NCBI GenBank assembly: GCA_963836545.1
Contig: CAWIKD010000005.1
Location: 55,186-119,185, forward strand
Reading direction: 5' to 3'
Length of the DNA stretch: 64,000 bases
Source: an uncultured Acidimicrobiia bacterium
GTDB taxonomy: Bacteria; Actinomycetota; Acidimicrobiia; Acidimicrobiales; Ilumatobacteraceae
Under the pieces are notes generated by a model. The model was not told where the DNA came from, made no database searches, and saw only the letters and a list, made by a program, of their open reading frames with translations. A program made the position numbers and the translations under genes. Of this stretch, positions 5,004 to 43,177 are shown in pieces. The first letter of the stretch is position 1, and the number at the start of each line of letters is the position of its first letter.

Positions 5004-6461
<1,458 letters not shown>

Positions 6462-11651: not shown

Positions 11652-11769
11652 CGTACGCCGGCCGCTGCGCCGCTAGCTCCGACGACCGGCGACCTGACGT
11701 CAGTCCGGTGCATCGTGCCTGGTCACCGGCCACGTGCTCACTCGCGCACCCCTTCGTCATGCTCGACCC

Positions 11770-12378
11770 ATGATCTTCACGACCCGTTGCGCCGGCTGCG
11801 AGACACCGGGCGCCCCGATCTGTCGCACCTGCCGGTTCGCGCTCGTCAGCCGGGCTCGCCCCGAGGCACCCGACGGCGTCCTGGTCGCCGCCCCGTTCTC
11901 CGGGCGGGTCCGCGACGTGCTGCTCGGGTTCAAGTACCGCAACCGGCGAGCGGTCGCCGGACACCTCGCCGGGTTGCTGGTGAACCGGCTGGTGGCGGCC
12001 GATCGGGGCGTCGACATCGTGACGTGGGCGCCCACCAGCCGACGACGACGACGGGAGCGCGGCTTCGACCAGGCCGAGCTCGTGGCCCGCCACGTCGCCC
12101 GCCAGCTGGGCGTGCCGTGCCGGCGCCTGCTCGACCGGGCCGACGTCGAGGGTCCCCAGACCGGACGCGATCGTCACGCCCGGCTCCACGCACCGACGTT
12201 CCGCGCCCATCCCCACGTGCCCCGGGCGCGCATCCTCGTCATCGACGACGTGGTGACGACGGGCGCCACCTTGCGGGCGGCGACCGCCGAGCTCGAACAG
12301 GCCGGCGCCACCGAGGTGGTTCCGGCGGCGTTCGCGGCGACACCGGATCGCCGCCACCAGATGGCTCGGGCGGCCTGA
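11770..12378 (+). CDS. ComF-family phosphoribosyltransferase-domain protein
   Basis: N-terminal Cys cluster (CAGCETPGAPICRTCRF) and PRTase motif ILVIDDVVTTGATL. Its position upstream of secA matches the mycobacterial Rv3242c-secA1 arrangement. Confidence 0.75.
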   Translation: MIFTTRCAGCETPGAPICRTCRFALVSRARPEAPDGVLVAAPFSGRVRDVLLGFKYRNRRAVAGHLAGLLVNRLVAADRGVDIVTWAPTSRRRRRERGFDQAELVARHVARQLGVPCRRLLDRADVEGPQTGRDRHARLHAPTFRAHPHVPRARILVIDDVVTTGATLRAATAELEQAGATEVVPAAFAATPDRRHQMARAA

Positions 12379-34227: not shown

Positions 34228-34264
34228 GGGAGAACGACCCCGCCGGACTCCTCGATTCATCGAT

Positions 34265-34308
34265 CTGGGCGCGAAACCGTCGCAGAACTGCGACGGTTTC
34301 GCGCCCAG
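34265..34308 (+). promoter_or_regulatory. 44-bp perfect palindrome (21-bp arms, 2-nt centre) in the divergent promoter region between the PPOX gene and the patatin-like gene
   Basis: CTGGGCGCGAAACCGTCGCAG-AA-CTGCGACGGTTTCGCGCCCAG; the reverse complement of the left arm equals the right arm exactly. Confidence 0.8.
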
Positions 34309-38665: not shown

Positions 38666-38766
38666 TGGAACGAGGCTAGCCCTCACGTAAGCTGGACTGC
38701 AGCTAACACTGTGAGCCGGTGTCAGGATGTGGCCCGGCACTGCCCGCACGACCCCAGGGGGACACG

Positions 38767-40548
38767 CACATGGCGACGCGCGACGAGGCGATCGAGAAGC
38801 CCCAGTCGACCCGGTTCGACGGCATTGACGGGCGTGACCGTCATCCGCAGGAGTACTACGACGAGATCAAGGCGCGCTACGCCGCCGAGCGCGACCTGCG
38901 CCTCGCCTACCGCCCGCCGGGCACGGCGTTGTACACGTCGGAGCTGCCCGCCGACTTCGCCAACTACCAGCTCGACCCGAACGGCCGTCAGCCCGAGCCG
39001 CGCGAGGTCATCACCGATCACGTCGAGGTGCTGTTCATCGGCGGCGGGTTCTCGGCCCTGCTGACCTCGGCGCGGCTGCGCGAGCGCGGCGTCGAGAGCA
39101 TCCGCATCGTCGAGCGCGGCGCCGACGTCGGCGGCACCTGGTACTGGAACCGCTACCCGGGCATCGCCTGCGACGTCGTGTCGTACGACTACCTGCCGCT
39201 GCTCGACGAGATGCAGTACGTGCCGTCGAAGCACTACGCCGAGGGTCCGGAGATCTTCGCCCACTGCCAGGCGATCGCCCGCCGCTACAGCCTCTACGAG
39301 CTGGCCGTCTTCCAGACGACCGTCACGTCGACGGTGTGGGACGAGGACGCCCGGCACTGGGTCGTCACCACCGATCGTGGCGACCGCATGACGGCCACGT
39401 TCGTGATCTGCGCCAACGGCACCCTGGCCAAGCCGCGGCTGGCGATCATCGACGGCATGGAGACGTTCGAGGGCACGTCCTTCCACACGTCGCGCTGGGA
39501 CTACGAGTTCACCGGCCAAGACCTCGAGCACCTCAAGGACAAGGTGGTCGGCATCATCGGCACCGGGGCCAGCGCGGTGCAGATCGTGCCCAACGTCGGC
39601 GCGGCGGCCAAGGAGCTGTACGTGTTCCAACGCACGCCGTCATCGATCGACGTGCGCGACGACTGGCCGACCGACCCCGAGTGGGCGGCGAAGCGGCCGC
39701 CCGACTGGCAGACCAAGCGGCGGGCCAAGATCATCTCCAAGGAGCGCGAGACGGCTGCGCGCAGCCAGTCGCTGCGCGACGGGATCACCCGCGAGGAGAA
39801 GATCCGCCGCCAGGAGAACGCCAACATCGACGCCATGATGCGGATCCACCGCCGCATCGACGAGACCGTCGAGGACCCGGAGACGGCGCAGTCGCTGAAG
39901 CCGTGGTACATGATCATGTGCAAGCGGCCGTGCTTCCACAACGACTACCTGCCGACGTTCAACCGGCCCAACGTCCACCTCGTCGACACCCATGGCGAGG
40001 GCATCACGAAGATCACGCCGCAGGGCCCGGAGTTCCACGGCAAGGTGTACGAGCTCGACGTGCTGATCTACGCCACCGGGTTCGAGGTGCAGCAGACCGG
40101 CATCTACAACCGCATCGTCGGCGAGCACGGGGTCGACCTGCAGGACAAGTACGCCGACGGCATCCGCACGCTGCTCGGGATCCACACCCACGGCTTCCCG
40201 AACCTGTTCATCATGGGCGGCTACCAGGCGTCGTTCCAGTTCAACCTGACCGACCTGTTGCAGGTGCAAGGGGATCACATCGCCAACTGCATCGACCACG
40301 TGCGGCAGAACGGCTTCGAGACGCTCGACTGCACGCCGGAGGCCGAGGAGGCGTGGGTCGAAGAGGTCATCGCCAACCGCGGCAAGACCAACCGCAACGC
40401 CGAGTGCACGCCCGGGTACTACAACTTCGAGGGCCAGTTCAACCGGCGCCAGGACGGCAACTACAACGGCGGCTTCGCGGCGTACTGCGACCACATCGGC
40501 CGGATCGAGGCCGAGATGGACGCCGACTTCACGTTCACGAGAGGCTGA
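38767..40548 (+). CDS. Baeyer-Villiger flavin-containing monooxygenase (type I BVMO)
   Basis: FAD GxGxxG (FIGGGFSAL), BVMO fingerprint (GGTWYWNRYPGIACD), NADP site (IGTGASAVQ). 593 aa, divergent from TetR. Confidence 0.85.
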   Translation, partial: HMATRDEAIEKPQSTRFDGIDGRDRHPQEYYDEIKARYAAERDLRLAYRPPGTALYTSELPADFANYQLDPNGRQPEPREVITDHVEVLFIGGGFSALLTSARLRERGVESIRIVERGADVGGTWYWNRYPGIACDVVSYDYLPLLDEMQYVPSKHYAEGPEIFAHCQAIARRYSLYELAVFQTTVTSTVWDEDARHWVVTTDRGDRMTATFVICANGTLAKPRLAIIDGMETFEGTSFHTSRWDYEFTGQDLEHLKDKVVGIIGTGASAVQIVPNVGAAAKELYVFQRTPSSIDVRDDWPTDPEWAAKRPPDWQTKRRAKIISKERETAARSQSLRDGITREEKIRRQENANIDAMMRIHRRIDETVEDPETAQSLKPWYMIMCKRPCFHNDYLPTFNRPNVHLVDTHGEGITKITPQGPEFHGKVYELDVLIYATGFEVQQTGIYNRIVGEHGVDLQDKYADGIRTLLGIHTHGFPNLFIMGGYQASFQFNLTDLLQVQGDHIANCIDHVRQNGFETLDCTPEAEEAWVEEVIANRGKTNRNAECTPGYYNFEGQFNRRQDGNYNGGFAAYCDHIGRIEAEMDADFTFTRG

Positions 40549-40723
40549 CGCCTCGCCCCATCCGAGTGTTGGCGGTCATCGGAGTGTCGGAGGGCGGGCG
40601 CCGCCCTCGCGCCCGGGCGGGCCGAGCCAGCTCGACTCGATGACCTCCAACCTTCTGCCGCGAGAGCGTCCGTCAATTGGACCGGTGCCCGCTGGGATTG
40701 GTGCTCGGGACGACCGAGGGGCC

Positions 40724-41058
40724 TGGATTCCCTCCGGGCCTGACTCTGTGCTGCGGGCCCTCCTCTGTCCTCTGTCCGACACAGAAGGGGCTCACGGTTC
40801 GCCGACACCGTTTCGGTCGCGGTCTTCCGTCGAAACGAGTCACCTGACGCGACCAAAACAGCGCCAACCGACGACGCCGCCGTTCTGTGTCAGAGTGCGC
40901 GACCAATTTGGCTGGTGCCCCCCTGGGGGTAGAAAAAGCTTCGTACGACCGGCGGGCGGCCGGGATTCGCTCCGGGTCTTGCATGGTGCAACGGGAACGT
41001 CGCTTCGGTCGCGATGTTCCGTCGAAAAGCGCCATCTGACGCGACCAAACGGAGCGCC
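40724..41058 (+). repeat. imperfect direct duplication of a ~60-140 nt module (copies 40724-40866 and 40958-41058; conserved cores 40809-40865 and 41001-41057) within a 665-bp lower-GC non-coding gap
   Basis: Aligned cores: cgtttcggtcgcggtcttccgtcgaaacgagtcacctgacgcgaccaaaacagcgcc versus cgcttcggtcgcgatgttccgtcgaaaagcgccatctgacgcgaccaaacggagcgcc. Upstream arms are ggattccctccgggcctg versus ggattcgctccgggtcttg. A third cgcgaccaa copy lies at 40896-40909. Confidence 0.6.
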
Positions 41059-41213
41059 CCACAGAAGCCGCCGGCACGCAGCACCGAGCCAGGACCTGGA
41101 GCAAACCCCGACGCACCCCACCGTCCGGAGCTCTTCGAACGCGACTGAGCCGCCCACTCAAATTTCGCATCACCTCTTGTCACGCCAATAGAGTTCGTAT
41201 TACTGTCTGTCAC

Positions 41214-41822
41214 ATGAAGTCGGCGCGGCCGTACACCATGACGGCTCGGCGTGACACCGTCGAGCAGACCCGCGAGCGGATCCTGCAGGCCGCGTACGAC
41301 ACGTGGCTCCGGCTCCCGTACGACCACGTGACGCTCGACGCCGTCGCCCGTGACGCCGGCACCACCCGCCAGACCGTCCTGCGGCACTTCGGCTCCAAGG
41401 ACGAGCTCGCCGTGGCGGTCGTCGATTGGCAGCGGCCACGCGAGGAATCGGCCCGGCGTGTCGACCCCGGCGACATCGTCGCCGCCGTCCGCCAGCTCGT
41501 CGAGCGCTACGAGGAGATGGGCGACGCCAACGTGCGCATGCTCGAGCTCGAGGGCCGCATCGCCCCGATCGACCACCTGCTGGCCGTCGCCCGCGAGGGC
41601 CACCGGACGTGGATCGAGACCACCTTCGCCCCGTTCTTGCCCGGTCGGGGCGCACGACGCGAGCGGCTGATCATGACGCTGTACGCGGCCACCGACGTCA
41701 CCGTCTGGAAGCTGCTGCGACGCGACCACGGCTGCTCGCGGGCCGAGACCGAAGCCATCATCCGCAACCTGGTGGAGGGCGCCACGCAGACGCACTCCCC
41801 GACTCGGGAGGAGCAACCATGA
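41214..41822 (+). CDS. TetR-family transcriptional regulator
   Basis: HTH ..TLDAVARDAGTTRQTVLRHFGSKDEL... 202 aa, stop overlapping the next start (ATGA). Confidence 0.75.
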   Translation: MKSARPYTMTARRDTVEQTRERILQAAYDTWLRLPYDHVTLDAVARDAGTTRQTVLRHFGSKDELAVAVVDWQRPREESARRVDPGDIVAAVRQLVERYEEMGDANVRMLELEGRIAPIDHLLAVAREGHRTWIETTFAPFLPGRGARRERLIMTLYAATDVTVWKLLRRDHGCSRAETEAIIRNLVEGATQTHSPTREEQP

Positions 41823-43106: not shown

Positions 43107-43177
43107 CGCCATCCGAGGGTTTGGTGCGGGGCCCCCGTGCACGAAACCCTCGGATGCAACGAAACCCTCGGATGGGA

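Follow-up and report, generated by a model that had tools for sequence, protein, structure and literature searches.

Dispersed palindromic repeats in the BVMO-TetR spacer of an uncultured Acidimicrobiia bacterium and their association with an IS481-family insertion sequence

A repeat patch between the BVMO and TetR genes

In the 64,000-nt stretch of DNA from an uncultured Acidimicrobiia bacterium (the window), a 665-bp gap (40549-41213) is bounded by the stop codon (40546-40548) of a BVMO gene (38719-40548) and the ATG (41214) of the TetR gene (41214-41822) of a TetR-GT1 pair. Much of this gap is occupied by a patch of repeated modules that includes two copies of a palindromic unit of ~50 nt, the core, and an earlier note, made from the sequence alone, had described the region as a duplicated and apparently structured non-coding module. 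Our analysis indicates that the patch is very probably a cluster of dispersed repeats and not an RNA gene. The earlier note had offered three identities for it, a duplicated small RNA (sRNA), a pair of cis-regulatory RNAs, or the remnant of a mobile element; the first two fall away and the third proves essentially right, because close relatives lack the module, its core recurs at unrelated loci and sits at the 3' ends of genes, the element associated with it is identifiable as an insertion sequence (IS), and covariation is negligible.

GC content at third codon positions (GC3) is at most 0.76 in every reading frame of the gap, versus 0.92-0.96 in the flanking genes (0.96 for BVMO and 0.92 for TetR), in agreement with the earlier observation that the gap holds no open reading frame (ORF) with coding-like GC3. 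A coding or pseudogene reading was considered and rejected, as the two ORFs of 183 and 166 aa that can be drawn through the gap have flat GC1/2/3 profiles and match no Pfam family; together with the low GC3, this marks the 665 bp as non-coding. The lower overall GC content that had also been pointed out was found to be only marginally so, at ~0.66 compared with 0.63-0.74 nearby.

Exact matches to the TetR and BVMO proteins of the window were looked up, and neither is on record; the closest available relatives of the TetR gene were taken from ENA metagenome contigs. Two of these, L001 and L002, are ~90-93% identical to the window at the nucleotide level across the BVMO, TetR and glycosyltransferase genes and beyond, and in both the spacer consists of a perfect 47-nt hairpin after the BVMO stop codon followed by ~40 nt leading to the conserved TetR promoter. 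BLAST alignment to these contigs revealed that homology ends at 40598 and restarts at 41151/41159; ~490-540 bp of the window spacer, roughly 40652-41140, are missing from both. In the more distant relatives L003 and L004 another gene lies upstream, and the sequence shared with the window is confined to 41162-41213. As L001 and L002 retain the TetR promoter without the patch, the module is dispensable for the TetR-GT1 unit. Its absence from the orthologous spacers of two ~92%-identical relatives is, moreover, an outcome that the earlier note had named beforehand as speaking against a conserved RNA.

Within the patch, the modules are ordered arm A, core A, arm B, core B and inverted arm (Table 1). 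The two diverged core copies reported previously are confirmed, with 86% identity over 49 nt (40809-40857 and 41001-41049) that extends to 77% over 74 nt (E=1e-10 against the 64-kb window), while the chance expectation for the 21-base core pattern is 0. Pairwise alignment revealed that the duplication is bigger than the cores, with an arm of ~115 nt on the 5' side of each; the conserved arm GGATTCnCTCCGGG that had been noticed before both cores is indeed present (direct repeat D2) and forms part of this longer module. Copy A carries 46 extra bases relative to copy B, within which lies the small hairpin tctgtccgacacaga. A hairpin of this kind had been described in front of each core, which holds for copy A and fails for copy B. 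This hairpin is a short counterpart of ctctgtgtcacc...ggtgacacagaa hairpins elsewhere, with longer versions occurring in L022, L014 and L032. The third partial core copy, cgcgaccaa, is likewise real, at 40898-40906, and turns out to be the start of arm B, reading GCGCGCCAAGAGG in the arms of other loci. Arm B, core B and the inverted arm together form a long imperfect hairpin (fold of 40925-41150, z=-2.5 as RNA).

Table 1. Features of the 665-bp spacer, in window coordinates. L numbers denote metagenome contigs; R1 is the covariance model of the core.
Feature	Position	Strand	Description	Matches elsewhere
REP-T hairpin, diverged	40559-40651		CATCCGAGTGTTGG..GGTCATCGGAGTGT.., directly 3' of BVMO stop; inverted repeat 40568-40581/40638-40651; outside inserted block	91-96% identical to L001 5858-5904 and 7927-7975, L002, L037 3267-3308
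Lineage-specific block	40652-41140		Without counterpart in close relatives; edges ±~15 nt	
Arm A	40653-40776	+	~115-nt module with GGATTCCCTCCGGG and GACTCTGTGCTGCGG; direct repeats D2-D4 versus arm B	L022 586-652, L046, L032
Small hairpin tctgtccgacacaga	40771-40785		Copy A only; inside 46-nt stretch missing from copy B	
Core A	40806-40863	+	Palindromic unit, R1 72.1 bits; stem TTCGGTCGCG / CGCGACCAAA; 26-nt loop contains conserved TTCCGTCGAAACGAG	90-93% identical to L022, L045, L034
Arm B	40883-40995	+	Starts with ttctgtgtcagag and a degenerate copy of the core 3' end, GCGCGACCAA (40897-40906)	77% over 112 nt to L022 537-643 (E=3e-11); also L032, L046
Core B	40998-41055	+	R1 72.8 bits; 31-nt 3' part CCGTCGAAAAGCGCCATCTGACGCGACCAAA	31/31 with sequence abutting left end of L014 IS481-family element
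Third arm, inverted	41060-41145	-	Inverted repeat I1 40725-40759 / 41073-41107	L014 610-694, L032 603-684, L022, L046
TetR promoter/operator region	41159-41213	+	Kept in relatives; outside repeat block	

Copies of the core at unrelated loci

Metagenome contigs were scanned with the exact 18-base pattern TTCGGTCGCGNNNTTCCGTCG, which matched 77 loci. The complete core is present in 15 of them, and all 15 carry the downstream CGCGACC, which the pattern does not demand. When a covariance model (R1) was built from 16 core copies, 17 copies scored between 66 and 78 bits, two from the window and 15 from the metagenomes, with everything else at 33 bits or below; most of the 77 pattern matches fall in the latter range, share only the 18 enforced bases and were rejected as family members. 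In the 64-kb window, R1 run without filters identified only the two cores as family members, and patterns for the core, arms and hairpins likewise gave no further copies outside the locus.

After contigs covering the same locus had been merged (L007 with L016, L024 with L037, L040 with L048, and L034 with L046), core copies remained at at least ten distinct soil-metagenome loci with unrelated flanks. Those of group 1 (L014, L022, L032, L034/46 and L045) have flanks and arms in common with the window, and every segment of 40663-41145 has a counterpart among the modules of L014, L022, L032 and L046, which occur in both orientations. Those of group 2 (L007/16, L012, L024/37, L039, L040/48 and L068) consist of the ~50-nt core alone. 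Two core patterns found 0 exact matches in 185,579 species genomes. A phage or plasmid origin was rejected, as blastn in its 'distant' setting gave no match among 72,556 plasmids and 50,697 phages and a pattern scan of viral contigs returned 0.

L034 (1642-1719) and L046 (128-269) represent one locus in two strains, with a 100% identical flank. A 63-nt module that holds ctctgtgtcacc and an inverted arm fragment directly follows the core in L046 and is absent from L034; short GCGG-type microhomology is found at its junctions.

Genes around the solo cores were called by GC3. At four group-2 loci (L007/16, L012, L024/37 and L039) two genes converge on the core, which fills the space between them and lies 7-23 nt after the stop codon of the + strand gene and 0-20 nt before that of the convergent gene, and the L040/48 core lies 12 nt after a stop codon. 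Repetitive extragenic palindromic (REP) elements between convergent genes take the same position, most of them lying no more than 20 bp from the end of either flanking ORF (PMC3733652). The position of the solo cores is incompatible with a role as a 5' leader. Nor does the family behave as a cis-regulatory RNA, with no copy upstream of the orthologous TetR genes on L001-L004 and solo copies at gene 3' ends.

Inverted core sequences bracket an IS481-family element

A core on L014 has, at a distance of 324 nt, a 409-aa ORF whose product is a transposase of the IS481 family: it scores 237 bits with NCBIfam NF033577, where the cut-off is 224, and matches rve, rve_3 and LZ_Tnp_IS481 of Pfam. The transposase gene is bracketed by inverted sequences of 31-34 nt that are shared with the cores: the right bracket, CCGTCGAAATGAGCCATCTGACGCGACCAAGA, matches the L022 and L045 cores at 32/32 positions, and the reverse complement of the left bracket is CCGTCGAAAAGCGCCATCTGACGCGACCAAA, which matches core B of the window at 31/31. 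Past these 31 nt, either bracket goes on in the manner of the 3' flank of the core subtype to which it belongs, and there is no resemblance between the two in this part. The core subtypes AAAAGCGCC and AAATGAGCC correspond to the two sides of this IS, and the difference between the two window cores (AAACGAG vs AAAAGCG) parallels the variants found at these sides. L014-type elements also carry subterminal CATCGCTGACA repeats proximal to their TGT end. In the 64-kb window, tblastn with the L014 transposase found no transposase, and IS end motifs were likewise absent.

We compared eight related IS copies (L082-L089), the transposases of which are 79-84% identical. The copies measure 1346-1364 nt from TGT to ACA, and several lie a few nt after stop codons. 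Homology among them extends from TGT (TGA in L088) to ACA, with 82-87% identity between lineages. TGT..ACA termini have been reported for IS481-family relatives (PMC10045372), and the L014 and L082-L089 elements, with a single DDE transposase and these ends, belong to the IS481 family. Outside the ends, L082-L088 carry a different inverted sequence of ~32 nt, consisting of GTTTCGGTCCGGATATC and a small hairpin GGTCGCnnnnGCGACC, that shares only its outermost ~8 nt (TTTCGGTC / TTTGGTCG) with the L014 brackets. L084 and L086, which encode identical transposases, differ at 1 of 1346 interior positions versus 7 of 65 bracket positions (Fisher p=2.5e-9), indicating that the brackets are locus-specific and are not copied with the element. 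One end of the L089 copy abuts unrelated DNA directly at TGT. In L082 a 16/16 direct repeat with an asymmetric loop (ACCC) stands next to both ends and is a candidate 16-bp target duplication; the IS481 family includes a class with ~15-bp target duplications, and duplications of 15-16 bp occur in eukaryotic relatives (PMC10045372). Plasmid homologues of the transposase (in the actinobacterial genera Rhodococcus, Mycolicibacterium, Arthrobacter and Gordonia) are all less than 45% identical and were therefore of no help in defining the IS ends. Taken together, the variation of the brackets suggests that the IS inserts at the apex of a ~50-nt palindromic repeat, possibly with a 16-bp duplication, and the sequence that core and L014 IS share probably lies outside the true IS ends.

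Fold and covariation of the core

Across 16 copies, the consensus core is a stem of 10-13 bp, TTCGGTCGCG/CGCGACCAAR, that is paired in 83% of cells, with a C.A mismatch conserved in 15 of the 16 copies and a 26-nt loop holding TTCCGTCGAAnnGnGCC. Ten stem columns are fixed by ascertainment through the search pattern, while conservation of the loop motif goes beyond the bases that this pattern enforces. Two helices had been proposed in the earlier note. GGTCGCG...CGCGACC is kept in both window copies, as stated there; CGYTTCG/CGAARYG uses the same 5' arm, so that the two are not nested and either compete or form a pseudoknot. In the pseudoknot arrangement, which combines the earlier note's first helix with the inner stem, 96% of cells are paired across the 16 copies. 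Its pair 14-38 is C-G in nine copies, U-A in four and unpaired in three, a change that splits the family into its two clades and hence reflects few events, and a competing partner in the long stem covaries just as well with the column concerned.

The T-to-C change matched by A-to-G on the other arm, which had been put forward as compensatory, does not hold up: it is out of register, both window copies having A in the partner column, and pairing in copy B would require two A's to bulge out. RNAalifold chose a plain hairpin with a covariation term of -0.13 kcal/mol, so that the covariation support called for in the earlier note is negligible and comes down to one pair varying on both sides between two clades. 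On the + strand, single copies fold no better than shuffled sequences (z = -0.2 and -0.7). On the - strand, where G.U pairs take the place of the C.A mismatches, copy A consequently does outperform its shuffles (z=-3.7). The palindrome itself is beyond doubt, and the fold data provide no evidence for a selected RNA fold.

The whole window has no Rfam match at the gathering threshold, which agrees with the earlier judgement that the module is unlike tmRNA, RNase P, SRP, 6S/Ms1 or a common riboswitch, and a search of 40300-41500 at permissive E-values gave chance-level matches only (E >=0.9). Hammerhead-like CUGA/GAAA motifs were inspected by eye and dismissed, as CUGAnGA is not satisfied and group-2 copies lack CUGA. 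An integron attC identity was also rejected: R'/R'' GTTRRRY boxes are absent, and the setting is one of convergent genes instead of a cassette array.

Discussion

The core is best described, in our moderately confident view, as a REP-like hairpin family that is targeted by an IS481-family element. We envisage the ~490-540-bp patch as lineage-specific interspersed palindromic repeat DNA that resembles a mosaic of the bacterial interspersed mosaic element (BIME) type, and the core as its ~50-nt hairpin unit, which would be dispersed in the genomes of uncultured high-GC soil bacteria. The patch probably arose through insertion, local duplication and recombination of modules downstream of the terminator-like hairpin of BVMO. 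Judging from its position, a solo core most likely acts as a bidirectional transcript-end hairpin, in termination or in protection of 3' ends; hairpins transcribed from BVMO may add transcript-end or insulating capacity, and the patch is likely a hot spot for IS insertion and rearrangement. No role of the patch in control of TetR-GT1 has been demonstrated, given that relatives without it keep the same promoter.

The resemblance to the REP and BIME systems of Proteobacteria and to REPINs lies in the arrangement of the module, which is alike, while the formal tags are missing. The cores are short, GC-rich, imperfect palindromes that are dispersed and intergenic; their 10-13-bp stem is within the REP range of 5-13 bp; they cluster with other short motifs into mosaics, as BIMEs do (PMC2817692); and presence or absence of modules varies between close strains. 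REPs are also landing sites for insertion sequences (PMC1525189). Unlike REPs, the core has no GTAG/CGTC tag, the bases before the stem being CGC, CGT or CCC; CGTC occurs in cores only inside the loop or, in one subgroup, 2 nt upstream. The 26-nt loop is conserved in sequence, whereas reported REP loops are of 2-20 nt, and the host is apparently a high-GC soil lineage outside the phyla given for GTAG/CGTC repeats (PMC3733652). The window cores stand in direct orientation, with only the arms alternating, which differs from REPINs and BIMEs, and we saw no RAYT (Y1 transposase), the sole transposase found next to cores being the DDE enzyme of the IS481 family.

Known REP-targeting elements belong to the IS3 family (IS1397/ISKpn1 and ISPsy8) and the IS110 family (ISPpu9/10, ISPa11 and IS621), and are flanked by broken REP halves that mimic extended inverted repeats (PMC1525189). 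The IS481-family copies described here likewise stand between inverted palindrome halves of ~32 nt, the variation of which is independent of that of the IS. Targeting of palindromes also has a precedent among IS1202-type relatives, which target palindromic recombination sites, IS1202-group elements abutting XerCD sites (bioRxiv 10.1101/2022.12.17.520857). The transposase here, in contrast, is of the IS481 family proper, a family that a 2006 survey of REP-targeting elements does not mention (PMC1525189), and targeting is deduced from eight metagenomic copies without empty sites. Modestly novel is the association of IS481-family elements with a REP-like hairpin family in an uncultured soil lineage, which they probably target.

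Several observations weigh against this interpretation. The L014 brackets are two inverted 3' core halves rather than the 5' and 3' halves of one core, which simple insertion into the known core leaves unexplained; the two could be reconciled if the palindromic unit was originally longer, with the solo core as an arm-deleted survivor, or by later recombination between IS copies. The 16-nt candidate duplication of L082 is nearly palindromic and is matched at only 12-13 of 16 positions in L086 and L088, L014 shows no target duplication, none of the IS copies (L014 and L082-L089) yielded an empty site, and no consistent direct repeat flanks either the solo cores or the bracketed IS copies. REPs number tens to thousands per genome, and within the 64-kb window the host has only one cluster of the modules. 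The family was gathered with an exact 18-base pattern, such that its real diversity lies outside our view. As for a role in termination, no U-tract terminator was predicted, and the function is read from position only.

The main competitor reverses the direction of the relationship, with the core as a ~50-bp MITE (miniature inverted-repeat transposable element) derived from the ends of the IS481-family element, a possibility that we regard as doubtful but serious. Such a non-autonomous MITE would have one full 31-nt terminal inverted repeat that is separated by a few bases from the 10-nt tip of the other, making the loop the transposase-binding part of the repeat and the stem its two tips. This would account for the 31-32 nt of identity between the cores and the inverted sequences that stand on either side of the transposase gene in L014, for the correspondence between the two core subtypes and these two sides, for the outermost 8 nt common to L014-type and other brackets, and for contig L086 beginning exactly at the bracket tip; cores also outnumber full elements, as is usual for MITEs. 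Like Correia/NEMIS and MITEAba12, the core is small, non-coding and hairpin-forming and has sequence identity to the end region of a full-length IS, and in its arm-core-inverted-arm layout the patch is similar to a MITE that has long inverted repeats. However, IS homology ends sharply at TGT/ACA, the termini known from the family (PMC10045372), and over 24 nt outside these the L014-type brackets bear no relation to the others (7/24 matches, by eye). Bracket variation between near-identical IS copies is ~150-fold above that of the interior, L089 lacks one bracket, no target duplication is present outside the brackets (five copies) or flanking solo cores, and the terminal repeat of a solo core would be only 10 nt. 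It is the comparison of near-identical IS copies that led us to downgrade the MITE derivation, and to lean, with some reserve, towards the core family as a preferred hairpin landing site of the IS481-family element. In either direction, the core belongs to the world of insertion sequences and interspersed repeats.

That the core is instead a structured + strand RNA, an H-type pseudoknot of the two proposed helices acting in factor-dependent termination, as an sRNA or in cis-regulation of TetR-GT1, appears improbable. The near-complete pairing in this arrangement, the switch at pair 14-38, the excess conservation of the loop motif and eight G.U pairs that are workable on the + strand only would fit such an RNA, for which the TRIT (Tuberculosis Rho-independent terminator) motif of Mycobacterium, a sequence-conserved terminator, provides a precedent (PMC3152330). 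Against this stand the single, clade-splitting covarying pair with its equally good competing partner, the plain hairpin preferred by RNAalifold, + strand folds that resemble shuffles, the lack of Rfam matches, the setting of most invariant columns by the search pattern, the absence of the whole module from close relatives that retain the TetR promoter, and the location of solo copies at 3' ends rather than in leaders. Less probable still is an operator array for the adjacent TetR or another local regulator. Palindromic units upstream of a TetR gene would suit this role, but the units also occur beside unrelated genes, mostly between convergent gene ends, and the TetR loci on L001-L004 lack them, keeping only 41159-41213 with its own TGTCAC repeats; a 26-nt spacing between half-sites is also atypical of TetR-family operators. 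The least credible of these explanations is that unique spacer DNA, belonging to no wider family, was simply duplicated in tandem at this locus. This would agree with the lack of other copies in the 64 kb and in two scans of the 185,579 species genomes, but is refuted by 15 metagenomic copies that reach the same model score and by arms common to other loci.

TRIT is of interest beyond the RNA hypothesis, being a palindromic, bidirectional motif of Mycobacterium that is conserved in sequence and structure and is located tightly at stop codons (PMC3152330); the core resembles it as a sequence-conserved bidirectional hairpin at stop codons. TRIT is reported as restricted to Mycobacterium, at 147 copies per genome (PMC3152330). 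The two core patterns have 0 exact matches in the 185,579 species genomes, among which Mycobacterium is expected, so that by exact pattern the core is distinct from TRIT; TRIT also has no reported IS association. One may tentatively go further and picture an undescribed REP-like hairpin family with two roles at once, though we consider this combination rather unlikely as a whole. As a sequence-specific landing pad for an IS481-family DDE transposase, the hairpin would be entered at its apex by an element with TGT..ACA ends, possibly with a duplication of ~16 bp; as a bidirectional transcript-end signal, it would act in a TRIT-like manner between convergent genes, possibly through a protein that recognises the TTCCGTCGAAnnGnGCC loop. 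If true, a new IS family and a new phylum would be added to the known range of REP-targeted transposition.

For annotation, the locus illustrates that long, repeat-rich and hairpin-prone spacers of high-GC genomes can mimic structured RNA genes, and that presence or absence in close relatives combined with a search for copies at other loci is a quick way to decide. It adds an interspersed palindromic repeat to a lineage in which such elements are hardly catalogued, and offers a concrete case in which the association of an IS481-family element with hairpin repeats can be tested. If the hairpins are transcript-end signals, the promoter of TetR-GT1 would be shielded by the patch against BVMO read-through; such insulation would be a strain-specific regulatory difference, and there is no sign here of selection for it.

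The TetR upstream region and other sequences encountered

The region directly upstream of the TetR ATG (41159-41213) is 83-89% identical to L001, L002 and L004, and contains TTGTCA (41177-41182), TACTGT (41201-41206) and a repeated TGTCAC. The TTGTCA...TATTAC promoter-like element described in the earlier note is present as a string before the ATG, but the bases conserved among relatives fit TTGTCA-N18-TACTGT better. This putative promoter would place the transcription start at or next to the TetR ATG, giving a leaderless transcript; a consensus promoter scanner reported no promoter before TetR. The upstream region is common to four related loci (window 41159-41213; L001-L004 ~5940-6000), and its repeated TGTCAC/GTGACA motifs are candidate operators. 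On L001 and L002 the BVMO and glycosyltransferase calls are split into several short ORFs while the DNA aligns continuously with the window, which suggests assembly frameshift errors rather than pseudogenes.

A second dispersed hairpin family, REP-T (CATCCGAGTGTTGG..GGTCATCGGAGTGT.. and its complement), is found directly after the stop codons of BVMO, GT1 and other genes, at 40559-40651 and 43110-43176 in the window, L001 5858-5929 and 7903-7968, L002 5869-5930, and L037 3270-3334. Copies on different contigs are 90-96% identical, L001 and L002 have the perfect 47-nt hairpin, and the window copy after BVMO carries a 26-nt replacement in its 3' arm. REP-T is probably a bidirectional terminator or a REP-like unit. 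Elsewhere in the window, 34258-34305 holds a perfect 22-bp palindrome, TCTGGGCGCGAAACCGTCGCAG aa CTGCGACGGTTTCGCGCCCAGA, that matches R1 weakly (15 bits); its sequence order is unrelated to that of the core, and it may be another terminator hairpin.

The unrelated matches to the 18-base pattern comprise a ~100-nt repeat from one sample, conserved coding sequence, and a low-GC, leader-like region. The repeat, ..CCATTTCGTAAGTTCGGTCGCGGATTTCCGTCGCGCTGGGATTGCTTCGTCGCTACGCTCCTCGCAATGACA..TGTCATTGCGAGCGAAGCG, occurs on 13 contigs, all from sample Ga0172371 (L005, L008, L021, L025, L033, L044, L061, L064, L072, L076-L078 and L080). The low-GC contigs L035 (~11690-11810), L050 and L074 share a conserved stretch upstream of an ATG, in which a promoter-like TTCAAG..TATATTAT is followed by a hairpin, TTCGGTCGCGGTT..AACCGCG, and which may be a leader element of an unrelated organism.

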